Source: an uncultured beta proteobacterium
Lineage (GTDB): Bacteria; Pseudomonadota; Gammaproteobacteria; Burkholderiales; JAEUMW01
Direction of reading: 5' to 3'
Length of the DNA: 64,000 nucleotides
NCBI GenBank assembly: GCA_963719715.1
Contig: CAVRDD010000054.1
Span: 7,383 to 71,382, forward strand
A program made the translations under genes and the position numbers. This document shows, piece after piece, positions 7,913-46,376 of this stretch; position 1 is the first letter of the stretch; every line of letters starts with the position of its first letter. The notes under the pieces were generated by a model, which did no database searches, had not been told where the DNA came from, and saw only the letters and a list, made by a program, of their open reading frames with translations.

Positions 7913-9610
7913 ATGCGTCTTGTATCGTTCTCAGTCACTAATTTTCGCAGCATCACTGACGCTCACAAGATACCAATCGGTGATTCGACCGTTCTCCTGG
8001 GGCGCAATAACGAAGGCAAGTCAAATGTCCTACGCGCTCTGAACATCGCGATGAAGGCGTTGACCACACACGCGACGGAAGAGACCTACTTTTTCCGAGA
8101 TCCGCGAGATTCTCAAGCCTATTCCTGGCGTCGCGATTTCCCCATTTCTCTCCAGTCGCGAACAAGCGGCCTAGAGTCAATCTTTCGCTTGGAGTTCGAA
8201 CTCACTGACCACGAGACGGACGAATTTCGCGAAACGATTAAGAGTAACCTGAACGGCAACTTGCCGATCGAGGGCAAATTCGGCCGCACAGGCAGGGTAG
8301 ACATCAACGTGCGCAAGCAGGGCCATGGCGGCCCTGCCCTTTCGGCCAAGTCAGGGAAGATTGCGAAGTACGTTGCCGAGCACATTCAATTTATCTACAT
8401 CCCCGCCGTGCGTACGGAGGACGAGGCGATATCTGTGGTTCAAGAGATGCTCTCAACGGAACTCGCTCAGCTAGAGACGGACGCAGAGTACATAGCTGCA
8501 CTGCAGAAGATTGCAGATTTGCAGCAACCAGTGCTGGACAAAGTGTCTGAGTCAATTCGCAAGTCGCTGACACAGTTCCTGCCTGGTATTAGAGGTGTCA
8601 CGGTAAGAGTTCCATCATCGGCACGACGTGTAGCGCTTCGTAATCAGTGTCAAATCGAAATTGACGATGGTTCTCGGACGCTGCTCGAGTACAAGGGCGA
8701 CGGAGTAAAGAGTCTCGCTGCGCTTGGACTTCTAAAAAACAAAGGCGTTGCCGAAGGCGCATCCATTGTCGCCATCGAGGAGCCGGAATCACACCTGCAC
8801 CCAGGTGCGATGCACAGCCTGAGAGAGGTGATCGATACCCTTACCGCCAACAACCAAGTCGTGCTGACTACACACTGCCCGCTGTTCGTTGACCGAACCA
8901 CGATCGATCGAAACATCATCATTGACAGGAATACTGCGAAGCCTGCAAAAGACATCTCTTCGATCCGGTCGCTGCTCGGAGTTCGCGCGTCCGACAATCT
9001 TGTAAATGCAAGTCATGTTTTGGTCGTTGAAGGCGACGAGGACATCATTGCGCTCACAGCCTTCCTTCCTCATCTAAGCCCTACCATTGCCAAGGCGCTA
9101 AAGCAGTTCCAGTTGGTGCTTGAACAAATCGGTGGCGCCGGAAACCTCTCGTACAAGCTGTCAACCCTCGCAGATGCCCTTTGCGTTACGCATGTTTTGC
9201 TCGACAACGACGAGGCGGGCAAGAAGGCCTATGAAAAAGCAGTGGGCGAAGGCATGCTGCGCATGGCGGACACTACCTTCGTGAACTGCAAGGGCATGCC
9301 CGCTTCTGAGCTTGAAGACACCTTTGACAGTGGCATCTACAGCGCAGGGATTCTTGACTCCTTTGGCGTTGACATTGCTGATGCAGCGTTTCGAGGCAAC
9401 GCGAAGTGGTCGGACCGAATCAAGGCCTGCTTTGAGAAGCAAGGTAAGCCTTGGGGCGATGCAACCAAAGCTCAAGTTAAGGCCGTCGTTGCTCGGGAAG
9501 TTGCCAAGCGGCCTAGCGATGCCTTGAGTCCACACAAGCGCTCCGCTATGGACGCCCTTGTGTCTGCGCTGGAGCGAAAACTGCAGACAAAGGGAGCGCG
9601 TGCGACGTGA
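7913..9610 (+). CDS. OLD-family ATP-dependent endonuclease (ABC-like ATPase + Toprim)
   Basis: Walker A GRNNEGKSN; Walker B/D-loop IVAIEEPESHLHP; Toprim motifs VLVVEGDEDIIAL and LLDNDEAGKKAY. 565 aa. Local GC is visibly lower than the flanks. Confidence 0.85.
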   Translation: MRLVSFSVTNFRSITDAHKIPIGDSTVLLGRNNEGKSNVLRALNIAMKALTTHATEETYFFRDPRDSQAYSWRRDFPISLQSRTSGLESIFRLEFELTDHETDEFRETIKSNLNGNLPIEGKFGRTGRVDINVRKQGHGGPALSAKSGKIAKYVAEHIQFIYIPAVRTEDEAISVVQEMLSTELAQLETDAEYIAALQKIADLQQPVLDKVSESIRKSLTQFLPGIRGVTVRVPSSARRVALRNQCQIEIDDGSRTLLEYKGDGVKSLAALGLLKNKGVAEGASIVAIEEPESHLHPGAMHSLREVIDTLTANNQVVLTTHCPLFVDRTTIDRNIIIDRNTAKPAKDISSIRSLLGVRASDNLVNASHVLVVEGDEDIIALTAFLPHLSPTIAKALKQFQLVLEQIGGAGNLSYKLSTLADALCVTHVLLDNDEAGKKAYEKAVGEGMLRMADTTFVNCKGMPASELEDTFDSGIYSAGILDSFGVDIADAAFRGNAKWSDRIKACFEKQGKPWGDATKAQVKAVVAREVAKRPSDALSPHKRSAMDALVSALERKLQTKGARAT

Positions 9611-9674
9611 AGCCTCTCTCTCAAGAAACACCTCCCAGGTGACTGGTTTTGAGCAATGTTTTCAAGCGGGTCGT

Positions 9675-10005
9675 TCAGTTGGCGACGAGTTTCATACCCA
9701 ACTTTTCGGCGCGCAGGGCGAGTTGGCGCAGGACGCGTTGGCGGTAGCGCTCTTCGTAGTAGTGCTGACCTTGATCGGTGTATTCCTCGCCCTTGGTGAG
9801 CATCGTGTCGATCAGCCGCGCCAGTTTGTGCTCGGCAGCGGTGACGGCCTTGAGTTTGTCCATGTGTGAGCACATGCGCCGGAAGTACGCGCCGAGCGCC
9901 GACTGGCTCGAACGCAGCGCCGCGGCGGCCAGTCGCAGGGCTTGCGCGGCGCGGTTGGCGCAGCGCTTGGTCTTGCCGCACATGAGCTTGCCGCCGGTGA
10001 TCGAG
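9675..10005 (-). mobile_element. IS110-family transposase 3' fragment (C-terminal ~110 codons only)
   Basis: Minus-strand translation ...GKTKRCANRAAQALRLAAAALRSSQSALGAYFRRM...EERYRQRVLRQLALRAEKLGMKLVAN*. The N-terminal catalytic half is absent. Confidence 0.7.
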
Positions 10006-23511: not shown

Positions 23512-23786
23512 TCTTTTCCAATCCTCTCGCGACAATGACGGAGTGCTGAGAATCGCAACCCGGCAACGCCATAGGGCTTGAGCAGAATCTGGACCCGTCC
23601 GGAGCCGCTTCATTCCTTCGGCCGGAGCCAAGGGCTAACGTACCATGGCTGCGCGGGTCGCTCAACGGCGGAAGCTGGCCCCGTCAATGGATCGATCGGG
23701 TGAGCCTCGCTGCCCCAGCGTCTGACGCGGCTGCAAGCAGAGCGTGCGAAACGAACTTGCGGCGGGTCCGCCGGCGGGATTTCTGG

Positions 23787-25939
23787 CTACCCGCATTTCA
23801 TTTCATTGTCCGCCAGGATTCGTTCGATCTGATCCGCCTCGGGAATGCGCAGCCGGCGTGCGTCTGCCAAGGCGAGGCAAAGTAACTCGTTGGCTGAATT
23901 ACGGTCTTCCACACCTTTCCCGGCCAGCAAGGTCAGCGCAATCTTGGCCCGGCAGACGAGCAATTCGCGCACGTCGCCCAGGCGCTCGTAGACCGGGAGC
24001 TGTTCTTCGGTGCGGATGCGCAGCGCCTCGTCGAGCTCGCCGCGCGCTTGCAGGATGTCGGCGATCTTTCCCATCGTCACCGCCTTCTCGCGCACGTCGC
24101 CCAGGCGCTCGTAGACCGGGAGCTCTTCTTCGGTGCGGATGCGCAGCGCCTCGTCGAGCTCGCCGCGCGCTTGCAGGATGTCGGCGATCTTTCCCATCGT
24201 CACCGCCTTCTCGCGCACGTCGCCCAGGCGCTCGTAGACCGGGAGATCTTCTTCGGTGCGGATGCGCAGCGCCTCGTCGAGCTGCCCGCGCGAGCGCAGG
24301 ATGTCGGCGATTTTTCCCATCGTCACCGCCTTCGCGCGCACGTCGCCCAGGCGCTCGCAGACCGGCAGCTCTTCTTCGCGGCGGATGCGCAGCGCCTCGT
24401 CGAGCTCGCCGCGCGCTTGCAGGATGTCGGCGATTTTTCCCATCGTCACCGCCTTCGAGCGCACGTCGCCCAGGCGCTCGTAGACCGGGAGCTCTTCTTC
24501 GCGGCGGATGCGCAGCGCCTCGTCGAGCTCGCCGCGCGCTTGCAGGATGTCGGCGATTTGTCCCATCGTCACCGCCTTCGAGCGCACGTCGCCCAGGCGC
24601 TCGTAGACCGGGAGCTCTTCTTCGGTGCGGATGCGCAGCGCCTCGTCGAGCTCGCCGCGCGCTTGCAGGATGTCGGCGATTTGTCCCATCGTCACCGCCT
24701 TCGAGCGCACGTCGCCCAGGCGCTCGTAGACCGGGAGCTCTTCTTCGGTGCGGATGCGCAGCGCCTCGTCGAGCTCGCCGCGCGCTTGCAGGATGTCGGC
24801 GATTTGTCCCATCGTCACCGCCTTCTCGCGCACGTCGCCCAGGCGCTCGTAGACCGGGAGCTGTTCTTCGGTGCGGATGCGCAGCGCCTCGTCGAGCTCG
24901 CCGCGCGCTTGCAGGATGTCGGCGATCTTTCCCATCGTCACCGCCTTCTCGCGCACGTCGCCCAGGCGCTCGTAGACCGGGAGCTGTTCTTCGGGGCGGA
25001 TGCGCAGCGCCTCGTCGAGCTGCCCGCGCGAGCGCAGGATGTCGGCGATTTTTCCCATCGTCACCGCCTTCGAGCGCACGTCGCCCAGGCGCTCGTAGAC
25101 CGGGAGCTGTTCTTCGGTGCGGATGCGCAGCGCCTCGTCGAGCTCGCCGCGCGCTTGCAGGATGTCGGCGATCTTTCCCATCGTCACCGCCTTCTCGCGC
25201 ACGTCGCCCAGGCGCTCGTAGACCGGGAGCTCTTCTTCGGTGCGGATGCGCAGCGCCTCGTTGACGTTCCCGCGCGACAACTCCATATCAGCGATCTCGG
25301 CCCACCCATCCCAGGCGATGCCTCAGGACGTGCTCATCTTCCGAACCCAGGGAGGACGCGATCCGCGCGCGTAGTTCTCTCAATCGTTCTGCGCGTTCCT
25401 GCGCGGACAGGCGAGGGTCGACGCCGAATTCCCAGTCGCGGCGCGCCACGGGGCGAATCTCGACAGTGGTGAGTTCAGGAAATGCGATCGTATCGCTGCG
25501 CCAGTCGAAAAAGTCTGGTGCACCCGCAGTCAATGCGCCGAGGAATCGGTGAGGCACCCAGAAGACGACCGCATGTGGAACGCGCGCACGCCACTCGATG
25601 CGGCGGAGATTGAGGTTGGCCAGCAAGCGTTGAGCATGAGCACTATTGCCCAACCCCCGCTCGACGCCCACCGACCATCACAGGACCCGGCGGGGCATCC
25701 GTGAGAGTATCAGTGACTGCCTCCAGTACGTCGTCCGTATTGTCGGAGAGCTCAACGCGGTGCATAGTCGTGCCCGGCATGGAGGCGGCAAGGTTGGCGA
25801 TGAACTCGTCACGGCTGGCGGGCGCATCACAGGTGCAAATATAAAGCGAAAAGCCGCGGCTCCTTGCGATGCCGCGCCGTAGCGCGCGAAACGCCGCGCC
25901 TGCTTGCTCCAGGGGGGATTCAGCGGCGGAATCGCTCAA
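23787..25939 (-). pseudogene. N-terminal unknown domain + 11-12 x 41-aa TPR-like repeat protein (two frame disruptions; start uncertain)
   Basis: Three ORF pieces (25643..25978, 25288..25671, 23787..25286) join into one reading. The joined translation is ...GFSLYICTCDAPASRDEFIANL...GPVMV|GVERGLGNSAHAQRLLANLNLRRIEW...VVFWVP...APDFFDWRSDTIAFPE...EHVLR|IAWDGWAEIADMELSRGNVNEALRIR, followed by the repeats. Shifts lie near 25655-25680 and 25308-25330. A possible TTG start at 25939 overlaps the upstream stop. Confidence 0.6.
23968..25320 (-). repeat. tandem array of ~11 near-identical 123-bp units (coding 41-aa TPR-like repeats)
   Basis: The CGCACGTCGCCCAGGCGCTCGTAGACCGGGAG motif recurs at 23968, 24091 and 24214, and by extrapolation every 123 bp up to 25198. 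Consensus REKAVTMGKIADILQARGELDEALRIRTEEELPVYERLGDV. Confidence 0.95.
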
Positions 25940-27233
25940 GAGTGCGCAAAACCGGGTTGATCTCGTACCACATCTCACCGTTCATGTACTCGAACACGAA
26001 CAGGAGCAACAGCATCTGCTGATGGAGGTCATCCTTCGGGATGTCGGGCTGGGGATGATCGAATTTCTTGAGTGTTTTCCCCAGGCCGCATCCGGCACTT
26101 CGCGCAACAGCGCGTTGCCGTACTTGCGGATGGCTTTCTCGGCGGCCTCGCGGGTGATCGGGAGTTCGTCCAGCTCATTGCAGGCGGATTGCAGAAACAT
26201 CATCAGGTGCCGAGGGTGACCTCCGCTCATTTCGCAGAGACGGTTCAACGTTTCCTCGTCGTCGAAGGCTTCCGCTATCGACGTCTTGGCAAAACGGCAA
26301 CGGCTCTCGACCATCTCACGCATCTTGGCCATGCCGGGGGACGCTGGCGTAACTGGCTGATCGCGGTTCGGTCTCAGACGGATCATCGACACTGGCGCGT
26401 GGTGCTCGCCGATGCATTGTTCGAGCTGCCGAAGCGAGGGAGTAAATCAGCGAAATGGGCACCGTATAGATGGTGTGCGCCTTCAACGAGGCAAGCTGCT
26501 CGCTCCGATCGATGAACAGACGATCGTGTGTATTGTTGCCATTGCCGAGGTCGCGCCGCACCAGTTTGTCGAGGCCGTCTATGATCAGTACGAGACCTGA
26601 ATGGTCGGCGATGTGGGCGGCGGCCTGCGCTGAGGACAGCAGATCGTTGACTGCGTTGAGGAGCGACGTGCTGTGCTTTTCCACGGCTTCGCGCAGCAGT
26701 CCGCGCGAGTTGGGACGGTTGCGCAGTTCGGTGGTCAGCTTCCCGAAACCCGCGTCTACCTCGATTTTCTCCAATTCCACCTGGCTGCCCAGCATGCCGC
26801 GAATGTCGTCCCAGACGCGTCTGAGATAAGTCGTCACAGGGTCGAAACCACTGAGGCCAGCTTTGCTGAGCTGCTGCTGCAGCAGCGACGCGACGAAAAC
26901 CAGCAGATCGGGGAAATCCAGGTCGTTGACATCCAGTTGGTCGCTGACGTCGCCAAACACGACAAGGAAGCCGCGCTTGCTGTCGTTCGGCTCCTCAAGC
27001 AGTGCCTTCAGACGGAACAGCTCGCTCGTCTTCCCTACGCCGCGATGGCCAGTGAACAGCTTGAAGTCGGAACTGTCCGGTTTCGCTCGCCGGAGGCTCC
27101 GCGCGTAAAGCGAAACTACGTTCTCGTCGCCGCGGACCGCATCGAAATCCACCCAGCGCACGTCGTTCGGGTGCAGAGATTCCAATGGCTCGCAGGCTTG
27201 GTAGAGCCGTGTAATGGCGGGGAGGTCAGGCAT
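25920..27233 (-). pseudogene. STAND/ORC-like P-loop NTPase (two compensating frame disruptions)
   Basis: Walker A GHRGVGKTSEL; Walker B LVLIIDGLDKL; then IYTVPISLIYS|...LRQLEQCIGEHHAPVSMIRLR...; SGGHPRHLMMF (GxP-like motif); ...VPDAAW|GKTLKKFDHPQPDIPKDDLHQQMLLLLFVFEYMNGEMWYEINPVLRTLERFRR*. Shifts lie near 26425-26450 and in the TTTTCCCC run at 26075-26082. Confidence 0.65.
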
Positions 27234-27384: not shown

Positions 27385-28150
27385 TCAGCCGCGCTCCGGA
27401 AACGCGGCTGCGACGAGCTGCGGCAACACCGCCGCCGCCGGGCCGCGCAGCGAGAATCTCGCGTGCGGCGTGAGCGGCGTCGGATCGGGATTCACTTCGA
27501 CGACGCAGCGCCCGGCGTGCAGCGCCTGAAACGGCAGCGAGGCCGCCGGCTCGACCACGGTCGAGGTGCCCACGGAAAGGAAGACTTCGCATTCTGAGGA
27601 CGCGCGCATCGCGGTACTCGAGCGCCTCTGCCGGCAGCATCTCGCCGAACCACACGACGTCTGGTCGCAGCATGCCGCCGCAATCGAGGCAGCGCGGCGG
27701 CACCACGTCGCCCGGCCAGTCGGATTCGGCGGCAACGCGGTCGCAGACGAAGCATTTCGAACGCATGATGTTGCCGTGCAGTTCGACGATGTGGCGGCTG
27801 CCGGCGCGCGCGTGCAGGCCATCGACATTCTGGGTGACGAGCAGAAACTCCGGCGCGCGCGATTCCAGCTCGACCAGCGCCCGGTGTCCCGCGTTCGGCT
27901 CCGCCTTCGCGACCAGTTCACGCCGCCATGCGTACCACTCCCACACCAGCTTCGGGTCGTGTGCGAAGGCTTCGGGCGTGGCGAGCTCTTCCGGGCGGAA
28001 GCGCGCCCAGAGACCGGTCATTGCGTCGCGGAAGGTGGGTATGCCGGATTCGGCGGAGATGCCGGCACCGGTGAGCACGACGATACGCTGCGCGCCGCGC
28101 AGTCGGTCGACCAGCGCTTCGGGTAAGGCGACTGTCGCGGCGGAAGCCAT
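27385..28150 (-). pseudogene. cobB: NAD-dependent protein deacylase, sirtuin/CobB type (one frame disruption)
   Basis: GAGISAESGIPTFRD, QNVDGLH, ELHGN, Zn-ribbon cysteines CFVC...CLDCGG. After EMLPAEALE the conserved continuation AMRASSECEVFLSVGTSTVVEPAA...VEVNP is in another frame (ORF 27385..27921). Shift near 27608-27622. Confidence 0.8.
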
Positions 28151-37700: not shown

Positions 37701-38814
37701 CGCGCCGGCGGATGCTGGCGGTGTGCAACTGCTGACCGATGCACTAGCCTCGGCGCTCAAACGCGTGAAGGCGATCGACGTGCAGCCCGAGGCGTGGGAT
37801 CGCAGCGATCTTCCGGCACATCTGTCGATGAACATCTCGGTCGCGGGCGACGATGACATGGAGATCGCCTCGGGTCGCGACCTGCAGGCACTGCGCGACG
37901 ATCTCGGCGTGCAGGCGCAGCAGCGCTTCGCACCGGAGAACGCGTGGGAACGCACGGGGCTCGTCGCCTGGGAAGGCTTCGATCTGCCGGCGGCCGTGAC
38001 CTTCGATCGCGAGGGACAGACGCTCACGGGGTTCCCGGCGCTGGTCGATGCCGGGGATTCGGTGACGCTGACAATGATCGATACGCCCGAGCAGGCGCGG
38101 GACGAAACACGCTTCGGTATCAACAGGCTCGTGCAACTCGCGCTCAAGGAGCAGATGAAGTTCCTAGGGGGCAGCCTGCCGGGTTTCTCGCAGCTGGCGC
38201 TCCTCTATGCGAACCTGGGCAATGCGGAGCAATTGCGCAACGACCTCGTCGCCGCCATCGTCGACCGCGCGGTGTGGGCGGAGGAGACGCCAGTGCGCGA
38301 TCACCATGCCTTCGAGGCACGGGTGAAGCAGGTGAAAAGTCGCATCCTCGTCGTCGCGCAGGAGTACGTGAGACTCGCGACGGAGGTGCTGACCGAAGCG
38401 CAGCCGGTGCGCAAGACCCTCGATGGTGCGCTCGCGGCAAAATGGCGCGAGGCCTGCGCGGACATGCGCCGCCAGCTGCAGAACCTGATCTTCGCGGGAT
38501 TCGTCATCGAGGTGCCGTACACGCGGCTGCAGCAGTATCCACGCTACCTCAAGGCGATGGCGCGGCGGCTGGAGAAGATCCCCAACTGGCCGGAGCGCGA
38601 TGCGAAATGGACTGCAGACATCGCGAGGCTGTGGAGGCAGTACGAGGAACGCCTGGCAAGGCATCGCAAGGCCGGCGTCCATGATGTGCACCTGAACGAA
38701 TTCCGCTGGCAACTGGAAGAGCTCCGCGTGTCGCTCTTCGCGCAGGAACTGAGAACGCCCGCACCCGTTTCAGCGAAGCGTCTGGAGAAGCTGTGGGGGA
38801 TGGTGACGGCATGA
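34783..38814 (+). CDS. hrpA: ATP-dependent RNA helicase HrpA (DEAH-box)
   Basis: GETGSGKTTQLPK, DEAHERS, TSATID, TNVAETSLT, QRAGRCGR, plus HA2/OB and a long C-terminal region. The first ATG (34783) is only 32 nt from the divergent maeB start. The GTG at 34918 may be the true start. Confidence 0.93.
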   Translation: MTRFYSMAAEKDGTRRASTVRVREVGGQRGVSHTLSLPSHYQTALVQPRDRTAIEALRAALDGVITRERGKFLRRLREIDQGASAEQVDALAGEIEASRARCQARIAALPRPTFPEALPVSARRDEIAAAISSHQVVIVCGETGSGKTTQLPKICLALGRGAAGLIGHTQPRRIAARTVANRIASELATPLGRVVGYKIRFQDRVDDEAYVKVMTDGILLAETQTDRMLAAYDTLVIDEAHERSLNIDFLLGYVRQLLPRRPDLKLIVTSATIDAERFSKHFGGAPVVEVSGRLYPVEVRYRPLATDAEKGDEQDLTDAILDAVDAVSRPGEQGDILVFLPGEREIRDVAEALRKHHPPGAEILPLYSRLSAQEQDRVFDAGGARRIVLATNVAETSLTVPRIRYVIDPGYARVNRYSYRNKVEQLLTEKISRASANQRAGRCGRVMSGVCVRLYDEEDFAKRPEFTDPEILRSSLASVILRMAALNLGHVEQFPFLDLPQPRMIADGYQLLNELGAIDAQHRLTAVGTRLAKLPIDPRIGRMVLAAKQENCLAEVLVIAAALSVQDPRERPLDKQGSADLAHAQFMDERSDFLSFLRMWTFFEEAVKHKKSGRKLAETCREHFLSYLRLREWRDIHGQLHALVTEMGLRPNEQPAAYEQIHRALLTGLLGNIGTKGEEPGEYVGARGIKFRVHPGSGIKKQQPKWLVAAELVETTRLYARHVARIEPEWIEQIGAHLVQREYFDPHWERKPAQVVAFERVSLYGLVVSPRRRAHYGPINAQAAREIFIRGALVAGEFDTHAVFFAHNRKLREEVEALEHKSRRLDVLVDEERVFAFYDARVPEGIVNGAGFEKWRREAEGKNPRLLFMAREDLMRHGAEGITSVLYPEDFKLGEVTLPLTYRFEPGHALDGVTLTVPLHLLNQLDPRRLDWLVPGLLREKVNALLRALPKQTRKLLVPVPETVTACLVEFDRAPADAGGVQLLTDALASALKRVKAIDVQPEAWDRSDLPAHLSMNISVAGDDDMEIASGRDLQALRDDLGVQAQQRFAPENAWERTGLVAWEGFDLPAAVTFDREGQTLTGFPALVDAGDSVTLTMIDTPEQARDETRFGINRLVQLALKEQMKFLGGSLPGFSQLALLYANLGNAEQLRNDLVAAIVDRAVWAEETPVRDHHAFEARVKQVKSRILVVAQEYVRLATEVLTEAQPVRKTLDGALAAKWREACADMRRQLQNLIFAGFVIEVPYTRLQQYPRYLKAMARRLEKIPNWPERDAKWTADIARLWRQYEERLARHRKAGVHDVHLNEFRWQLEELRVSLFAQELRTPAPVSAKRLEKLWGMVTA

Positions 38815-39249
38815 CCCGTCTAACGTGCTCCGCTGCCCATGTGGCAGACGGAGCTTTCGCCTCAAGGCGGAGTTCTTCAAGAAGTTAGCTGCCGCGGACT
38901 CCTGGTCCTTCTTGGCTGCGCCTGTCTCTCGGGTGGCATCCCAATGCCACATCGAGCCCGACTACCCGCCGGCGTACCGCACCGGGCCACTGCGATCAGC
39001 CATGCCATCGCCCGCCATCATCTTCTTCAACTCGTTGCGCGTTTTCCCACTCGCCAGTACTCTCCGCCACGGAAGCGGGGTGTTATAGTCCCTCGCGATG
39101 CTCGAACGGGCGGTACTGCGGCGCTCCGCCTGACCGAGGCTTCACTCGTTTCGTGCGACACTTTGGAGTTCACATCCGTGGGATCACCGCCGCAGTTGGG
39201 CAGCGCTGTCTGTCTCTCTACCTCACGCAACATCGCATGTCGCTTACTT

Positions 39250-41697
39250 ATGATCTTGGTGTTCGCGATCGTGCCGAGCGCGTTGGCCGCCGCGGCTGGC
39301 GAACACGTTAGCGAGGCGAACCTTGTACTGCCCGATCTCCGCGACGCGTCCCTGGTGTCGTTTCTTGGTGGAATGTCCGGCTGGTCGCTGCTTTCGTATG
39401 GCTTGTTGGTCTGCATCGGCGGACTGGCCTTCGGCGCGGTCATCTACGGCCAGATCCGTCGCCTGCCGGTGCATCGTGCGATGGCCGAAGTGAGTGAACT
39501 GATCTACGAGACCTGCAAGACCTACATGATCACCCAGGGCAAGTTCCTGCTGATTCTGGAGGTGTTCACCGGCGTCATCATGATCGGCTATTTCTATTTC
39601 ATCCAGCAACTCAGCGTCGGTGAAGTGGCGCTCATTCTTGCCTTCTCGCTGGTCGGTATCGCCGGGTCCTATGTCGTTGCCTGGTTCGGCATCCGGATCA
39701 ACACGCTCGCCAACAGCCGCACTGCGTTCGCGTCGTTGCAGGGCAAGGCGTTCCCGGTTTATGCGATTCCAATCAAGTCGGGCATCTCCATCGGTATGCT
39801 GCTGATCTCGACCGAGCTCGTGATCATGCTGTGCATCTTGCTGTTCGTGCCCCCACACCTTGCCGGCAAGTGTTTCATCGGCTTTGCCATCGGCGAATCG
39901 CTGGGCGCAGCGGCGCTGCGCATCGCCGGCGGTATCTTCACCAAGATCGCAGACATTGGTTCGGATCTGATGAAGATCGAATTCGGCATCCAGGAGGACG
40001 ATGCGCGCAATCCAGGCGTGATTGCCGACTGTGCAGGCGACAACGCGGGCGATTCGGTCGGCCCGACGGCCGACGGGTTCGAAACCTACGGTGTAACTGG
40101 CGTCGCGCTCATTAGCTTCATCATGCTCGCTGTGCCGGACGCGGCCGTTCAAGTGCAACTCTTGGTCTGGCTGTTTGTCATGCGCGTGATGATGATCATC
40201 GCCTCGGGCGTATCGTACCTTGGCAATCAGACGCTCGCGCAGCGACTGTACGCGAACAAGCCGCGCTTTAACTTCGAAGCCCCACTCACCACGCTGGTGT
40301 GGATCACCTCGGCGGTGTCGGTGCTGCTCACGTTCGTCGTTTCCTCCATTCTGATCGGCGAGTTCACGACCGGCGGCCGGCAGTACGGGAATCTCTGGTG
40401 GCAGCTCTCGCTGATCATCACGATGGGCACGTTGTCCGGTGCCATCATTCCGGAACTCGTCAAGGTGTTTACGTCGACCAACTCAAAGCACGTGCGCGAG
40501 GTGGTGGCTGCATCCCAGGAGGGCGGGGCGAGCCTCAACATCCTGTCCGGCATCGTCGCCGGCAACTACTCCGCGTACTGGATCGGTGTCGTCATAGTTG
40601 CGCTGATGGCCGGCGCCTCGATCCTATCGCAGTTCGACCTGACCGCCGTCATCAATCCCGACCATGGCAAGGGCGTGATGATGGCCGCGGTATTCTCCTT
40701 CGGTCTGGTCGCTTTCGGCTTTCTAGGCATGGGGCCGGTGACGATCGCGGTCGACAGTTATGGTCCCGTCACCGACAACGCGCAGTCCGTCTACGAACTG
40801 TCGATGATCGAGCAACTTCCGGCAATCGAGGAAGAGGTCAAGCGGGATTTTGGCTTCGATGTCAACTTCCGCTCCGCAAAGTACCTGCTCGAGGAGAACG
40901 ATGGCTGCGGCAACACCTTCAAGGCCACGGCGAAGCCGGTGCTGATCGGAACGGCGGTCGTGGGCGCCACGACCATGGTGTTCTCGATCGTGATGCTGCT
41001 CACCTCTGGCCTGACCGAGAACTTGGACAAGCTGTCGCTGCTGTATCCGCCGTTCCTGCTTGGCCTGATCTCCGGCGGCGCGACGATCTTCTGGTTCTCT
41101 GGCGCCAGCACGCAGGCGGTGTCAACCGGCGCCTACCGCGCGGTTGAGTTCATCAGCACACACATCCGGCTGGACGAAGTCGTGAAGGCGACGCAGAAGG
41201 ATAGCAAGAAGGTCGTGGAGATCTGCACCATCTACGCGCAGAAAGGGATGTTCAACATCTTCCTCGCAGTTTTCTTCGGCACGCTCGCATGCGCCTTCTT
41301 CGAGCCGTTCTTCTTCATCGGCTACCTGATCTCTCTCGCGATCATCGGGCTGTATCAGGCCGTGTTCATGGCCAACGCCGGCGGGGCATGGGACAATGCA
41401 AAGAAGATTGTCGAGACCGAGATGCGCGCCAAGGGGACCGATCTGCACAACGCGTCGATCGTCGGCGACACGGTCGGCGACCCATTCAAGGATACCGCCT
41501 CGGTCGCCATGAACCCGATCATCAAGTTCACCACGCTGTTCGGTCTGCTGGCGGTGGAAATGGCGGTCGGACTAACCCTGAAGGGGCATGGGCAGCTGGT
41601 GATGGGGCTGGCGGTGGTGTTCCTCGCGGTCAACCTGTTCTTCGTCCACCGCAGCTTCTACGGTATGCGCATTGGGTCAAAGAAGGAACTGGGATAA
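39250..41697 (+). CDS. hppA: membrane-integral H+-translocating pyrophosphatase, divergent, K+-independent type
   Basis: Polytopic. DDARNPGVIADCAGDNAGDSVGPTADGFETY and DTVGDPFKDT motifs. GNTFKATAKP carries Lys at the position that distinguishes K+-independent enzymes. ATG 39250 was chosen within ORF 38839..41697. Confidence 0.88.
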   Translation: MILVFAIVPSALAAAAGEHVSEANLVLPDLRDASLVSFLGGMSGWSLLSYGLLVCIGGLAFGAVIYGQIRRLPVHRAMAEVSELIYETCKTYMITQGKFLLILEVFTGVIMIGYFYFIQQLSVGEVALILAFSLVGIAGSYVVAWFGIRINTLANSRTAFASLQGKAFPVYAIPIKSGISIGMLLISTELVIMLCILLFVPPHLAGKCFIGFAIGESLGAAALRIAGGIFTKIADIGSDLMKIEFGIQEDDARNPGVIADCAGDNAGDSVGPTADGFETYGVTGVALISFIMLAVPDAAVQVQLLVWLFVMRVMMIIASGVSYLGNQTLAQRLYANKPRFNFEAPLTTLVWITSAVSVLLTFVVSSILIGEFTTGGRQYGNLWWQLSLIITMGTLSGAIIPELVKVFTSTNSKHVREVVAASQEGGASLNILSGIVAGNYSAYWIGVVIVALMAGASILSQFDLTAVINPDHGKGVMMAAVFSFGLVAFGFLGMGPVTIAVDSYGPVTDNAQSVYELSMIEQLPAIEEEVKRDFGFDVNFRSAKYLLEENDGCGNTFKATAKPVLIGTAVVGATTMVFSIVMLLTSGLTENLDKLSLLYPPFLLGLISGGATIFWFSGASTQAVSTGAYRAVEFISTHIRLDEVVKATQKDSKKVVEICTIYAQKGMFNIFLAVFFGTLACAFFEPFFFIGYLISLAIIGLYQAVFMANAGGAWDNAKKIVETEMRAKGTDLHNASIVGDTVGDPFKDTASVAMNPIIKFTTLFGLLAVEMAVGLTLKGHGQLVMGLAVVFLAVNLFFVHRSFYGMRIGSKKELG

Positions 41698-41820
41698 CCC
41701 ATGACCACGTTCGCTCGCGCCGCGGATTCAATGGCGAACCCCCCACGCGCTGGGCCTGCCCGGCGCCGGTTGCGATAGCGGATATCAAACGGTGTCGACT
41801 CTTTTGAGGGGCCTTGAAGC

Positions 41821-42585
41821 ATGTCTATCCATCTGTACTACTCGCTGATTCCCGAAGCGCTGATCGCTTCGATGCTGACTCCCGAGCAGTTCGGCCAGTA
41901 CTACGCGACGGGTCACAAGTTCAAGTCGAAGGGGCAGGCGGTCTTCTTCGAAGTGGACCCGGAGTATCGGCATCCGTATTTCGACATCGAAGGGTGCTTT
42001 GCGCGCTGCCGCGCACGGCCAGACGGCGCGCCCAAGAACTCCGTCTACGTCTCCATGTATCGCGTGCTGGAGCACCTGACGTTGGATGCGCTGGGCAAGC
42101 TCTACCTCACAACCGCGATGGGCGCAACGCTGGGAATCGACCGCGGCGACGCAGTGCCGCAGCCGAAGCAGGAACTCCACATGTACCAGGATCTGTCGCC
42201 GATTAACAGCCTGGTCGTGAGCGTGCTCGATCCGGCCGGCTACTATGCCGACGTTACCACCAAGCCGTCGCACTCTTTCCACTTTCCTGGCATGTGCTTC
42301 GTCGAGCTTGATCTGGGACCGTTGGCCATCGACCCGGAGAGCGGCAAGGAGGGCGATCTGCCGTACTCGTTCATGCAGCATCTGCGAGAGGCGCTATTGG
42401 TGCTCGACCCCAAAGACAAGCAGAACAAACTCGTCCATCGCGTGCACTCGCTTGAGTTCCCGTACCGGATGGTGAAGGATGGTTTCTACGTGGGCATTGG
42501 CACCGAACTCGTCTACTACCCGATGTTGGCCCAGTCGACGCTGCGTCGGGATCACATCACCTGGTGGCGCTCGGCGAATATTTGA
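41821..42585 (+). CDS. conserved protein of unknown function (paralog of 44512..45275)
   Basis: 254 aa, MSIHLYYSLIPEALIASMLTPEQFGQYYATGHKFKSKGQAVFFEVDP...HSLEFPYRMVKDGFYVG...WWRSANI. No motif that I recognise. Confidence 0.7.
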   Translation: MSIHLYYSLIPEALIASMLTPEQFGQYYATGHKFKSKGQAVFFEVDPEYRHPYFDIEGCFARCRARPDGAPKNSVYVSMYRVLEHLTLDALGKLYLTTAMGATLGIDRGDAVPQPKQELHMYQDLSPINSLVVSVLDPAGYYADVTTKPSHSFHFPGMCFVELDLGPLAIDPESGKEGDLPYSFMQHLREALLVLDPKDKQNKLVHRVHSLEFPYRMVKDGFYVGIGTELVYYPMLAQSTLRRDHITWWRSANI

Positions 42586-42639
42586 CCGGACGTGGGTCTG
42601 CCGCGCGAAGGTTTGGTGCAATTTGGAACCATGACCGTG

Positions 42640-43060
42640 GTCACGGAACACCAGGAGATCACCGCGCCTCTGCGGCGGAATCTGCTGGCACTCGGGCTCG
42701 ACGCCCACAGCATTGCCACCGCTTTCTGCAGGCACTGAAACCATACGTTGGGTGCGAACTCCAGTCCAAGTACGCGTTCACCTCTATCAAGGCGCTCGCC
42801 ATGTCGCTGCGTGACCGCCTGATGGTCATGTGGAAGAACGCCCTTACTCCTACCGGGAAAGCGACTGTCGGCGCGCCTGTTACACGTCCATGGATCGGAT
42901 CTGGCGGCTGGAGCCGGTGGCGCCGCTGGCTGGCCTCTGCGCGAATTAGGGAAGCAGTTCGAGCTTGCCGGAGTACTCCATAGCGACCGAGACCCCTCCC
43001 TCTGGGCGATGACTTGTCGCTTCAGCCTTGCGCGGTTAGCAATTCGTGGAAATTCACCCC
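42640..43060 (+). pseudogene. possible decayed N-terminal fragment of an alpha-glucan (glycogen) phosphorylase
   Basis: Across shifting frames: SIATAF.RH.KHTLG...SKYAFTSIKALAMSLRDRLMVMWKNALT, then ...LRELGKQFE...DRDPSLG. This resembles the GlgP N-terminal pattern (..HL.YTLG....AT..D.Y.ALA..VRDRL...W..T ... ELG.DLE..E.E.D.GLGNGGLGRLA). It is interrupted by stops and deletions. Confidence 0.3.
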
Positions 43061-43109
43061 GCAAAGGCGCTTCTGGTCTGAAATCTGCCCGCGCGATGGC
43101 CGTAAGTCT

Positions 43110-43131
43110 ATGATATGCATGAGAATATCAT
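43110..43131. promoter_or_regulatory. inverted repeat ATGATAT-N8-ATATCAT in the AT-rich leader upstream of pfk
   Basis: Read directly from the sequence, about 95 nt upstream of the GTG at 43226. Function unproven. Confidence 0.25.
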
Positions 43132-43225
43132 ATGTATCTCATGCGGATGCCAGTCAATTTGGCAGAATTTCAACGAACTGTTAGATTACACTCGATCGCG
43201 ATTCGAATTCGGGCAGGGAGGCCTC

Positions 43226-44326
43226 GTGTCGACAACCACAGCCAAACGCATTGGCATCCTGACTGGCGGCGGTGACTGTCCAGGACTCAACGCTGTGATA
43301 CGTGCTGTCGTGAAGACCGCATGGAACCATTATGGCGCTACCGTGATCGGCATCGAGGATGGTTTCGAAGGCGTGGTCGAAGGACGGATGCACGAGATTC
43401 AGAGAAAGGAGGCTTCAAATATTCTCGGCCTCGGCGGGACGATCCTCGGGTCTTCCAATGTCGGAGATCCTTGGCACTACCCCGTGGAGCAGGCTGACGG
43501 TACGATCGAAATCCAGAACATGTCACATAAGGCGATCCGCAACCTCAAGCGGTGGGCACTGGATGCGCTGATCGCGGTGGGCGGTGACGGAACGATGCAC
43601 ATCTGCAGCAAACTGCAGGACTTGGGCGTCGGCATAGTCGGGGTACCGAAGACCATCGACAACGACCTTGCTTCCACGGACCGGACGTTTGGCTTTGACA
43701 CGGCGATCTCCGTGGTCTGCGAGGCAATCGACAGGCTGCACACCACCGCTTCGTCGCATCATCGGGCGATGGTGATTGAGGTAATGGGCCGTCACGCAGG
43801 CTGGATCGCCCTTGCCGGAGGGGTGGCGGGCGGCGCGGATGTAATCCTACTGCCGGAAATCCCGTTCACCTGGGAGACTGTGTTCAAGGTGGTCAATGAA
43901 CGCAACACGCACGGCAAGCGCTTTTCCATCATCTGCGTCGCCGAGGGAGCGCGGTTGCCAGACGGTGAACAGGTAGTCAAGTCGATGGACGTCAAGCGCA
44001 CCGACGCAAAGCAGCTTGGCGGTATCGGCGACGCCGTAGCACGTGCAATCGAGGAAGGCGCAGGGATCGAAACCCGGGTGACGGTGCTGGGACACCTGCA
44101 GCGCGGTGGGTCGCCCACCGCTTTCGATCGTGTGCTCGCGACGAATTTCGGGACGTCCGCCGCCCGTTGTGCGTGCAACGGGGAGACAGGCGTAATGGTG
44201 GCGCTGCGCAACAATCGCGTTGTGCCGGTACCCATCAAGGACGCCATCGCCAGTTTGCGCACCGTGCCGCATGACGACGAACTCGTGCTCTCCGCGCGCG
44301 CAGTGGGCGTGAGTTTCGGAGATTGA
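43226..44326 (+). CDS. pfk: 6-phosphofructokinase (phosphoryl donor ambiguous: ATP or PPi)
   Basis: RIGILTGGGDCPGLNAV, AVGGDGT, GVPKTIDNDL, MGRHAGW. GTG 43226 is preceded by GGGAGG. Confidence 0.9.
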   Translation: MSTTTAKRIGILTGGGDCPGLNAVIRAVVKTAWNHYGATVIGIEDGFEGVVEGRMHEIQRKEASNILGLGGTILGSSNVGDPWHYPVEQADGTIEIQNMSHKAIRNLKRWALDALIAVGGDGTMHICSKLQDLGVGIVGVPKTIDNDLASTDRTFGFDTAISVVCEAIDRLHTTASSHHRAMVIEVMGRHAGWIALAGGVAGGADVILLPEIPFTWETVFKVVNERNTHGKRFSIICVAEGARLPDGEQVVKSMDVKRTDAKQLGGIGDAVARAIEEGAGIETRVTVLGHLQRGGSPTAFDRVLATNFGTSAARCACNGETGVMVALRNNRVVPVPIKDAIASLRTVPHDDELVLSARAVGVSFGD

Positions 44327-44511
44327 AAGGCACGGCGCACGGTAACACGATCCACGATGACGCAATCTTGCACTAACCTGATGTGCCTCTGGTTCTTCTG
44401 TTCCGGGCATACTGGACACGTGGTACTTCGTCTATTTCCGCACCCATGCAGCGACATGATTTATGTCGCTGCTTCGTAGACGGAATTCAACTCTGGGGAG
44501 GCTTTGAAGTC

Positions 44512-45275
44512 ATGACAGTGCATCTCTATTTCTCGCTCGTACCGGAAGCGCTAATCGCCTCGATGCTTCCGCCGGAAAAATTCGGGCAGTACTACGCGAC
44601 CGGCCACGAATACAAGTCGAAGGGGCAGTCGATCTTTTTCGAGATCGACCCCACGTTCGCCATCCCTATTTCGAGATCGACACGGCGTTCTCCCGCTGTG
44701 TCCCCGCAGCCGATGGTGCGCCCAAGAACTCGGTCTATGTGTCCGTCTACCGTGTCCTGGAGCACCTGCCGATGAGCGCGATTGGTAAGCTTTATGCGGC
44801 GACCGCATATGGCCAGGTGCTCGAACTCACCCGCGGCGCCGAGATGCCGGCACCCGAACGCGGCCTGCACATGTATCAGGACCTTGCACCGGTCAACAGT
44901 CTGGTGGTGAGCACTCTGGATCCCGCTGCTTATTACGAGGTAATTACCAGCAAGCCCTCGAAATTCATCCGTTTTCCTGGCATGTGCTTTGTCGAACTCG
45001 GTCTCGGGGCATTAGCCGATGATCCCATGAACGGCCCGATCGGAGATCTTCCGTACTCGTTCATACACCACCTGCGCGAAGCGCTGCTCACCCTTCAACA
45101 CAAGGTCAAGGAGAGCAAGCTCGTGCACCGTGTGCATTCGCTGGAGTTTCCGTACCGGATGGTCAAGGGCGGGTTCTACATGGGCAACGGCAACGAACTC
45201 GCGTTTTATCCGATGCCTTCCCACTCGGATCTGCGCCGGGATCACCACGGCTGGTGGCGTTCGGCTAATCGCTGA
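44512..45275 (+). pseudogene. paralog of the 41821..42585 unknown protein, one frame disruption
   Basis: MTVHLYFSLVPEALIASMLPPEKFGQYYATGHEYKSKGQSIFFEIDPTF | HPYFEIDTAFSRCVPAADGAPKNSVYVSVYRVLEHL... A 1-nt gap lies near 44657-44662. The two ORF pieces are 44383..44775 and 44739..45275. Confidence 0.65.
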
Positions 45276-45614
45276 TTTTGTCAGTGCGTATCAGGACCAT
45301 GAAATTACGGTTCTCAAGTGGATTCGCGGATGCGGCCGCCCTGGGGGTGTGTGGCGTGGCACACCCTCGATAGATACACGCGCGGGGTAGGAAGCATCGA
45401 CCAGCGCATCGAGCTGCGGATTGGCCACGGTCACGTTGCATAGCGACAGGCGACCGAGAATCTTCAGCCGCGGGCTGCCCGTAATCGACGAGGATCAGAG
45501 CGACGCGATCGTTGCCAGCAAGATTGCTGACGCTCAGCATCGTCACACTTGGCCTTGACGAGGTCGCCAACCCGATCCTGAGCGTCGAGACGCCGATCGC
45601 AAGGACATCGAGCT

Positions 45615-45872
45615 GTGAGCGGCCTCGTCACCCGCAGCATGGTCTTCAGCTCGAACGAGATGGACTCGCATGTTGTCGCCCACACCGGGCGGATCGACCG
45701 CGATGGCGACCACCAGCTCCTTTTCATGGGCACGATCCGGCCCGCCTGCCGCAAGATCGACGTGTCGCGCTCGACCGCCGCCGAGATCGCCATCGATATC
45801 GACACGCCTGAGCCGCTCGCGCGTGGCGTGCCGGTGACGCTCAAATTCAGCCTCACCCCCACACGGTGGTGA
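45615..45872 (+). CDS. hypothetical small protein (strand and frame uncertain)
   Basis: The 85-codon frame has very high third-position GC and a plausible composition (VSGLVTRSMVFSSNEMDSHVVAHTGRIDRDGDHQLLFMGTIRPACRKIDVSRSTAAEIAIDIDTPEPLARGVPVTLKFSL). The antisense ORF 45464..45943 shares the same wobble positions but is Arg/Ser-rich. Confidence 0.35.
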   Translation: MSGLVTRSMVFSSNEMDSHVVAHTGRIDRDGDHQLLFMGTIRPACRKIDVSRSTAAEIAIDIDTPEPLARGVPVTLKFSLTPTRW

Positions 45873-45947
45873 TGAAGGCGAGCGAGCGCCTGCGCTTCGA
45901 CATTTGCCAGCCGCACGGACCTCCCGCGCGGCGCGAAGGCCAAGCCG

Positions 45948-46376
45948 TCAGCGGTTGATGTACTTCCCCAACTGCGTGATGACGAAATCCTGCTCGGAGA
46001 TATGCTCTTTCACCACATCGCCGATGGAGACGATGCCCACGACCTTGCCATCCTCAACCACGGGCAGATGGCGCGTACGGAATTCGGTCATGACCGCCAT
46101 CGCCTGCTCGACGCTCTGAGCGGGGCGCACACACGGGACACGCTCGTGCATCACGTCCCGCACCGGCGTCTCGCGCGAGGCCTTGCCCTGCAGGATCACC
46201 TTGCGTGCGTAGTCACGCTCGCTGAAGAGCCCGACCAAGCGCTCACCGTCCATGACGGGTAGCGCACCGACGTTGGTGGCCGCCATGAGCTTGAGTGCGT
46301 CGAACACGCTCGCCGCGGGTGCGACGGAGAAAACGTCTCGCGGCTTGCGGTCCAGCACCTGCTTTATCGTTGCCAC
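45948..46376 (-). CDS. CBS-pair domain protein
   Basis: ...LKLMAATNVGALPVMDGERLVGLFSERDYARKVILQG...MTEFRTRHLPVVEDGKVVGIVSIGDVVK. GTG 46376 was chosen within ORF 45948..46706. Paralog of 52504..52932. Confidence 0.8.
   Translation of the reverse strand: MATIKQVLDRKPRDVFSVAPAASVFDALKLMAATNVGALPVMDGERLVGLFSERDYARKVILQGKASRETPVRDVMHERVPCVRPAQSVEQAMAVMTEFRTRHLPVVEDGKVVGIVSIGDVVKEHISEQDFVITQLGKYINR

Follow-up and report, generated by a model that had tools for sequence, protein, structure and literature searches.

The window analysed here, a 64,000-nucleotide stretch of contig CAVRDD010000054.1 from an uncultured Burkholderiales bacterium, to which all coordinates below refer, carries on its minus strand a gene (25978..23787) whose C-terminal half consists of near-identical tetratricopeptide repeat (TPR) units. 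It lies directly downstream of a gene for a STAND-type P-loop ATPase (STAND, signal transduction ATPases that have numerous domains), with which it overlaps, and the two genes occur together as a conserved pair in many bacterial lineages. On balance, we favour a model where the units form a genuine coding array, the TPR solenoid of the second protein in a two-gene module, and serve to diversify a binding surface. The features concerned are as follows (aa, amino acids; AF2, AlphaFold2).

23970..25199, minus strand: array of ten complete 123-bp (41-aa) TPR-like units (unit alignment, Pfam, AF2 model of homologue P0135)
25200..25322, minus strand: degenerate first (N-capping) unit, its second half equal to the consensus and its first half broken by an extra base at 25307
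23787..23969, minus strand: degenerate last unit, then a conserved cap at the C terminus (RELLVCRAKIALTLL...RRLRIPEADQIERILADNEMKCG) and the stop codon (homologue comparison)
25308..25978, minus strand: N-terminal ~225 aa of the partner protein, forming an uncharacterised alpha/beta domain in which the motif APDFFDWR is invariant (homologue comparison, AF2)
25923..27233, minus strand: stand-alone STAND/ORC-like P-loop ATPase of ~437 aa (motifs, AF2, Foldseek)

The units are carried by a 499-aa open reading frame (ORF; 23787..25286, minus strand). Tandem Repeats Finder (TRF) places 10.7 copies of period 123 at 23965..25276 (95% matches, score 2328), the sole substantial tandem repeat detected when the whole 64-kb window was scanned. 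Pairwise, the ten complete units differ at 0-11 of 123 nucleotides, and 33 of 41 residues are invariant. A first-pass annotation, made from the sequence alone, had described ten complete 41-aa units with 33 fixed positions and eight variable ones, and our unit alignment reproduced every element of that description: the variable residues are 2 (E/S/A), 9 (K/Q), 15-16 (QA/RS), 19 (E/Q), 28 (T/P/R), 31 (Q/E/D), and 35 (Y/C). Three units had been reported as identical in protein; these are units 1, 3, and 10, and they are identical in DNA too. Variation touches 15 of the 123 nucleotide columns, 12 of them altering the protein and three silent, the silent differences being found only in codons 9, 18, and 32. 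The array is free of stops and indels over 1.5 kb, and the adjacent units 4-5-6-7 differ from one another stepwise by 2-3 nucleotides. Both degenerate capping units are as originally described, apart from the motif IAWDG assigned to the first, which is an out-of-frame reading upstream of the extra base at 25307; homologues read R-L-x-W-W-D/A-E-I/L-A at this place. The same annotation had also missed that the array ORF is only the tail of the gene, the 5' part of which is split over two further frames. The C-terminal cap recurs in homologues P0123, P0124, P0131, P0135, P0137, and P0142.

The assignment of the array to the TPR clan is supported both by profile matches above cut-off (TPR_12, 122 bits against a cut-off of 30.1, E 8.7e-36; TPR_10, 106 bits; TPR_MalT also matched) and by a solenoid of helix-turn-helix hairpins in structure prediction and Foldseek comparison. 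In the AF2 model of P0135, helix A spans positions 41-16 of the unit, the turn positions 17-19, and helix B positions 20-38, and the TPR domains of LGN/Pins, KLC1/2 (kinesin light chain, KLC), and BtubC are the closest to the TPR half of this model by Foldseek. Matches of the array to designed PPR proteins in the PDB were discarded as reflecting a generic helical-repeat consensus without homology, as were two plus-strand ORFs across the array (23744..25264, 506 aa; 24048..25472, 474 aa), which are periodic, Arg/Ala/Pro-rich, low-complexity shadows of a high-GC repeat and not genes. The 31-mers of the array and its flank (23690..25700) are also present at a low share (0.07-0.13) in ~20 metagenomes that are unrelated and come from sludge, freshwater, soil, and bog; these low-share matches suggest that different organisms have kept similar unit DNA.

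The first-pass annotation had raised the question of whether the variable positions scatter randomly on a structural model and among strains. Within the family, the eight coincide with positions that are intrinsically variable: over 80 units from other loci their entropy is 1.35-2.38 bits, and the remaining positions average 0.90 (Mann-Whitney p=1e-4). Independent near-identical arrays at loci L007 and L008 vary at 2, 9, 15/16, 31, and 35, and in the 34-aa arrays of Cyanobacteria the most variable positions are 34, 9, 12, 5, and 2. One such array, that of L041, varies at TPR positions 2, 5, 9, 11, 12, 17, and 34. The canonical concave positions of TPR helix A are 2, 5, 9, 12, and 13, and in two cyanobacterial arrays this set is more variable than the remaining positions (p=0.0014). 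When G8 and the G-x-hydrophobic-acidic-x-A turn are used to bring the 41-aa and 34-aa units into register, which is a register argument and not a surface calculation, position 2 corresponds to 2, 9 to 9, 15/16 to 12/13, and 19 to 16. By this register only 2, 9, and 15/16, four of the eight, match the canonical concave helix-A positions, and 19 lies in the turn.

The mean pairwise proportions of nonsynonymous (pN) and synonymous (pS) differences between units are 0.050 and 0.041, a ratio of 1.22. Finding 12 nonsynonymous changes among 15 variable sites is not expected under an omega (the ratio of nonsynonymous to synonymous substitution rates, dN/dS) of 0.11 (p=1e-5), nor under a null in which only the eight variable codons are neutral, either by nucleotide counts (p=0.002) or by event counts (p=0.007). 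The recent expansion or concerted evolution proposed at the outset agrees with the synonymous difference between units, 0.04, compared with 0.35-0.40 to the closest orthologues. Repeat shuffling, also anticipated there, finds support as well: three site pairs (2x9, 2x31, and 9x28) present all four combinations among the units and thus fail the four-gamete test, which indicates exchange between units or, alternatively, recurrent mutation.

The partner protein, 729 aa long once its frames are corrected, is laid out as an N-domain of ~225 aa, a variable number of units making up its C-terminal half, and the conserved cap. Its gene begins with a GTG at 25978 and shares 56 nucleotides with the end of the ATPase gene, an overlap which suggests translational coupling of the two; owing to an extra base at 25673, the N-terminal part is read in two frames. 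In the P0135 model (predicted local distance difference test, pLDDT, 83) the N-domain is a five-stranded alpha/beta structure bearing the APDFFDWR motif. Among 1.84 billion representative proteins, 207 clusters belong to the partner family. By sequence, the N-domain has no significant match to a Pfam family or to the PDB; Foldseek on the whole partner model gave no fold assignment for it, the TPR half dominating the matches. Its origin as a degenerate copy of the ATPase was considered and found unsupported (hhalign probability 0.2%).

The upstream gene displays a Walker A motif (GHRGVGKTSE), a Walker B motif (LIIDGLDKL), GGHPRH, and a C-terminal winged helix; across 38 homologues, GHRGVGKT, the NACHT-like Walker B LIIDGLD, and GGHPRH are all kept. 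A nucleotide-binding domain, a helical domain, and a winged helix are visible in its AF2 model (pLDDT 91.7), for which the top Foldseek matches are 2fna (SSO1545), 2qen (PAB2304), ORC/Cdc6, CED-4, RdrA, and Apaf-1. Walker A, a Walker B of the hhhhDGhD form, a GxP motif, and the helical domain plus winged helix together identify it as a STAND NTPase. By sequence it falls below all curated STAND cut-offs (AAA_16, at most 23 bits against a cut-off of 32.6; NACHT, 12-14; ATPase_2, 16.5; ORC-CDC6-like, 11-17) and below that of the closest named ATPase family, the NCBIfam Sll1717 P-loop ATPase (38.9 vs 75 bits), and it has no sequence-level matches in the PDB. Indeed, apart from the TPR region, neither protein scores above the cut-off of any family in Pfam, NCBIfam, or PADLOC. 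PADLOC 2.0 returned no matches for the ATPase or the N-domain, the array matching only a generic 'TPR' model and, spuriously, a repeat-driven Cas5d, and among the NCBIfam defence models the anti-phage DS41_1 scored 15 bits against a cut-off of 370. Once corrected for frame, the ATPase branch leading to the window has a dN of 0.044, a dS of 0.39, and an omega of 0.11, compared with 0.14-0.15 in its relatives.

A scan of one genome per species located 401 places encoding the partner N-domain, 80 of which were fetched and examined. At all 80 loci, drawn from at least eight phyla or classes, the ATPase gene lies immediately upstream of the partner gene or overlaps it, and at all 80 it is a separate gene of ~440 aa. 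Hosts include Chromatiaceae, Zoogloea, Accumulibacter, Competibacter, Methylomirabilia, Chloroflexi, Verrucomicrobiota, Isosphaeraceae (Planctomycetes), Binatia, and many Cyanobacteria. Near-identical arrays are recurrent in the family: by TRF on the partner genes, 27 of the 80 loci carry at least four copies at 85% nucleotide matches or more. The unit measures 123 bp (41 aa) in Proteobacteria (L007, 5.6 copies at 96%; L008, 4.6 copies at 94%), 120 bp (40 aa) in Chloroflexi and Isosphaeraceae, and 102 bp (the canonical 34 aa) in Cyanobacteria, where arrays reach 15.6 copies and matches reach 94-95% (L041, L078). In the L041 array (L041:5938-8334, Calothrix anomala FACHB-343; 14.6 copies, 94% matches) the protein ends in the NCBIfam 'TPR end-of-group' domain. 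Even where the N-domains of orthologues are 90-97% identical, copy number differs widely (in Crocosphaera 2.4 vs 7.4, in Nostocales 4.7 vs 15.6), and unit number differs likewise among the alleles P0132-P0135; part of this spread may be due to assembly collapse, as many of the assemblies are from short reads. Many family members have 1-3 units only.

A matching neighbourhood is that of L088, a Burkholderiales metagenome-assembled genome syntenic with the window at 85-88% nucleotide identity over the genes for a response regulator, a histidine kinase, DegP, Sir2, the ATPase, the partner, GATase, HpcH, sucCD, and phosphoenolpyruvate (PEP) carboxylase. Its Sir2 and ATPase genes are intact, and its array holds 6.5 units at 76% matches followed by a different cap. 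This synteny, together with the divergent array, implies that the module is resident in the lineage and that the window array was homogenised or expanded after the split. The L088 array (L088:6001-7772) has a frame break of its own, leaving two ORFs of 375 and 213 aa, and its cap is of the P0122 type. Sir2 was considered as a component of the module and set aside: it is a CobB-type SIR2 (Pfam 1.5e-48) without a PADLOC match, adjacent to the module in L088 only and not in L001, L003, or L004. At six of the 80 loci (L011, L013, L023, L036, L046, and L083) the ATPase gene is broken up into two to four ORFs, and the complete genome of Crocosphaera watsonii WH 8501 is among them; recurrent inactivation or sequencing error may be responsible. 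At L001:8379-9637 and L004:3128-5315 the module stands beside genes of toxin-antitoxin type (HicB, Uma2, PIN, TacA/GNAT), which are typical of variable islands. In the window itself, tRNA and Rfam scans found nothing, and the G+C content, ~0.66 elsewhere, dips to 0.56 at 8001..10000 and to 0.59-0.62 at 38001..46000, the latter stretch containing H+-pyrophosphatase and phosphofructokinase genes.

How might such a module operate? The first gene would provide the nucleotide switch, a stand-alone STAND/ORC-like P-loop ATPase ending in a winged helix, and the second the repeat sensor, in which the APDFFDWR alpha/beta domain is followed by a variable number of TPR hairpins and a cap. The two products would form a complex, equivalent to a NOD-like receptor (NLR) whose switch and sensor reside on two different polypeptides, and the TPRs of the partner would bind a ligand. 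Recent unequal crossing-over or gene conversion would keep the units near-identical in DNA, and the same recombination would alter their number and re-assort a small set of variant residues. These residues occupy positions that vary in all arrays of the family and that, on helix A, would be the canonical ligand-facing positions of a TPR; selection, and not mere tolerance, may shape them. Given that the variable sites fall at family-variable and, on helix A, ligand-facing positions, the likeliest role of the array would be the rapid diversification of a binding surface, as in the repeats of fungal NLRs. The biological output may be immunity, allorecognition, or regulation.

Any such model has to contend with the quality of the window copy. 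When compared with three homologues, the ATPase gene lacks one base near 26440 and one near 26429 and has two extra at 26078-26079, and the partner gene has one extra base at 25673 and one at 25307. In addition, an extra base at 27620 breaks the Sir2/CobB gene (27385..28150, minus strand) into two frames. These six frame-disrupting indels lie within 2.3 kb, are all of 1-2 bases, and in several cases sit in or beside short homopolymer runs. For twenty further genes of the window the Pfam matches are full-length (PEP carboxylase, sucCD, HrpA, H+-PPase, DegP, and malic enzyme among them), and the problem is therefore local; overlapping same-strand ORFs elsewhere, examined as signs of window-wide frameshifting, proved to be separate intact genes. 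We also compared the window with public reads, as Logan contigs of three runs (X1, X3, and X6) from one freshwater-sediment study. In the best of these, X1, 88% of the flank words are present at ~9x depth but only 7-20% of the locus words. Over the locus, matching contigs of the three runs reach a depth of just 0-4x, and the frame breaks are confined to this segment. No run with reads extending across the array turned up. In all three runs the dominant related strain departs from the window exactly at 23683 and 27470, so that the segment with the ATPase-TPR locus varies between strains of that population. Among the metagenome contigs there is no close relative above 64% identity. The related-strain contigs of X1 and X3 do not have the extra base in Sir2, and the syntenic Sir2 of L088 is intact at 254 aa.

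Several findings weigh against a diversifying array. Variable positions 28, 31, and 35 are on helix B, and the change Y35C occurs just once, at an aromatic residue that is conserved otherwise. Across the 80 loci there is no conserved third gene (the largest neighbour clusters cover 15-16 Nostocales loci only), and neither profile searches nor the neighbouring genes at these loci revealed a recognisable effector domain. The window likewise combines an absence of PADLOC matches with a housekeeping neighbourhood, and an immune role is therefore an analogy only. As they are read in the window, the ATPase and partner genes cannot give a full-length protein. The homogeneity of the units could be exaggerated if the contig was polished with multi-mapping reads. 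Finally, the whole-unit pN/pS is not significantly above 1 (p=0.45 for the 12 nonsynonymous of 15 variable sites under an omega of 1 over the whole unit), a comparison that involves 15 sites, some of them linked multi-nucleotide changes. This last result is also what one would obtain if the array had expanded recently and neutrally, by slippage or unequal crossing-over, with the variable sites being the least constrained surface residues and the whole serving as a spacer or scaffold of variable length. Such neutrality, which we consider unlikely, would fit the fact that variability between species, too, is highest at these positions, as relaxed constraint would give, and that the many members with 1-3 units show a long array not to be required; nor was any effector or defence context found. 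Yet the nonsynonymous excess persists even if the eight codons are taken as fully neutral, the helix-A variable sites are canonical ligand-contact positions of TPRs, and the recurrence of near-identical arrays in three unit-length classes, at 27 of 80 loci, points to a maintained regime rather than an accident.

The frame breaks raise a different possibility, namely that the ATPase, partner, and Sir2 genes are truly inactivated and that the array is a decaying remnant, its frame open by chance or through homogenisation of the DNA. The concentration of six indels in 2.3 kb would agree with this, as would the split ATPase ORFs at six other loci and the frame break inside the array of L088. A gene dead long enough to gather four indels should, however, show relaxed constraint, and the ATPase does not, its omega being no higher than that of its relatives; decay is thus less likely, and we rate it as distinctly improbable. 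Moreover, a housekeeping-type Sir2/CobB is affected as well, its extra base being absent from related contigs of the same study, and the array itself has neither stop nor indel. Because the frame-corrected ATPase branch retains such a low omega, we read the breaks as probable consensus errors in a low-coverage, strain-variable segment, likelier than a true pseudogene. The same doubt about sequence quality extends to the number and order of the units, and the count of ten is not to be relied on. It is a further step to attribute the count, the order, and the homogeneity of an otherwise real TPR array to a path through a repeat graph or to multi-mapped polishing. Units 1, 3, and 10 are identical over 123 bp and cannot be placed by ~150-bp reads, the surrounding indels betray a poor local consensus, the depth of matching contigs drops at the locus (0-4x against ~9x in the flanks), and short-read contigs from relatives either end at the array or include very few units, which makes the caution about assembly voiced in the first-pass annotation a reasonable one. 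That the array's features are largely of this origin nonetheless seems to us very unlikely: the frame is open over 1.5 kb with an ordered, stepwise similarity of neighbouring units, the variants occur at biologically expected positions, unlike random error, and independent genomes, including the complete ones at L007 and L036, hold comparable arrays at 90-96% matches.

The diversifying array that we favour would be an instance of a phenomenon known in kind; what appears to be undescribed is the conserved split module, in which near-identical TPR arrays recur. Near-identical, shuffling repeats are a hallmark of fungal NLR receptors that track fast-changing ligands; the use of the same trick by bacteria has been noted in the literature and hardly examined. 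Here it would be present in a compact two-gene module that has no curated family for either its ATPase or its N-domain and in which variation falls at ligand-type positions. A bolder and doubtful, if possible, extension is that the pair constitutes an undescribed, phylum-spanning 'split NLR' recognition system, its specificity re-made by concerted evolution of the TPR units, with the APDFFDWR domain as a new adaptor or effector and the 34-, 40-, and 41-aa classes having arisen independently, in other words a bacterial counterpart of the repeat-shuffling receptors that serve fungi in immunity or allorecognition. Were it a recognition system, it would offer a simple split-NLR model open to genetics and would imply that recombination-driven diversification of sensors predates eukaryotes. 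On the practical side, arrays of this kind, with low-coverage and strain-variable surroundings, are the least reliable parts of metagenome assemblies.

Comparison with known systems helps to situate the module. The closest solved folds for the array, kinesin light chain, LGN/Pins, and BtubC, have long TPR_12-type hairpins and the hydrophobic-Gly turn in common with it, but they lack internal identity at the sequence level and are cargo or polarity adaptors of unrelated biology. The module ATPase shares the P-loop core, helical lid, and winged helix of SSO1545 (2fna), PAB2304 (2qen), ORC/Cdc6, and CED-4/Apaf-1 (Foldseek E 1e-4 to 4e-4, TM-score 0.4-0.55), with a sequence identity of 9-13%. With the antiviral STAND NTPases of the Avs (AVAST) group it has in common a STAND-class ATPase and an alpha-helical repeat sensor, putative in our case; the Avs sensor recognises a protein ligand (PMC13581612). 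An Avs protein is, in contrast, one tripartite polypeptide whose effector is a nuclease, protease, Sir2, or the like and whose sensor is irregular, not built of near-identical tandem units (PMC13581612), and judged by the PADLOC and NCBIfam defence models the module is not of Avs type. The NLR-like proteins of Actinobacteria and Cyanobacteria (NB-ARC or NACHT with TPR or WD repeats) come nearer, as they also link a STAND-type ATPase to TPRs with an internal identity of 80-90% or more, and their enrichment in filamentous or aggregate-forming lineages is paralleled by the many module matches in Nostocales and Chromatiaceae (bioRxiv 10.1101/2020.01.06.895854). They differ in that the module ATPase is below the NB-ARC and NACHT Pfam thresholds, the module is split into two genes, and neither a Bell domain nor an amyloid motif is seen in it. 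The module also extends to Beta- and Gammaproteobacteria, two groups reported to contain few NLRs of fused architecture (bioRxiv 10.1101/2020.01.06.895854).

The analogy with fungal NLRs, drawn in the first-pass annotation, stands for the evolutionary regime and fails for the architecture. In the fungal WD40, ANK, and TPR repeats of high internal conservation (HIC; HET-E/D/R, NWD, and the NB-ARC-TPR proteins of P. anserina), repeats and ATPase are parts of one protein, whereas in the module the ATPase is a separate, overlapping gene, and the repeat protein is not itself of STAND/NLR type. The fungal arrangement, a single polypeptide joining HIC repeats, a NOD (NACHT or NB-ARC), and an effector, is absent, and there is no N-terminal HET, HeLo, or PNP_UDP effector. 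The unit has 41 aa against 42 in fungi, and by register only half of the variable positions in the window fall on the concave face. In the fungal case, repeats at least 85% identical, polymorphism in repeat number, and positive selection on the binding face have been documented (PMC4986451), and a high internal conservation of bacterial NLR WD and TPR repeats had already been remarked (bioRxiv 10.1101/2020.01.06.895854), so that the fungal pattern was the right analogue to choose. The array reaches the HIC level of identity, set at 85% or more between units over no less than 100 aa. Overall, the two share near-identical units (>85%; PMC4986451), a number of units that in the module, too, appears labile between orthologues, variation at a few positions per unit with a nonsynonymous excess, a long KLC-like TPR, and the association with a NOD-type ATPase.

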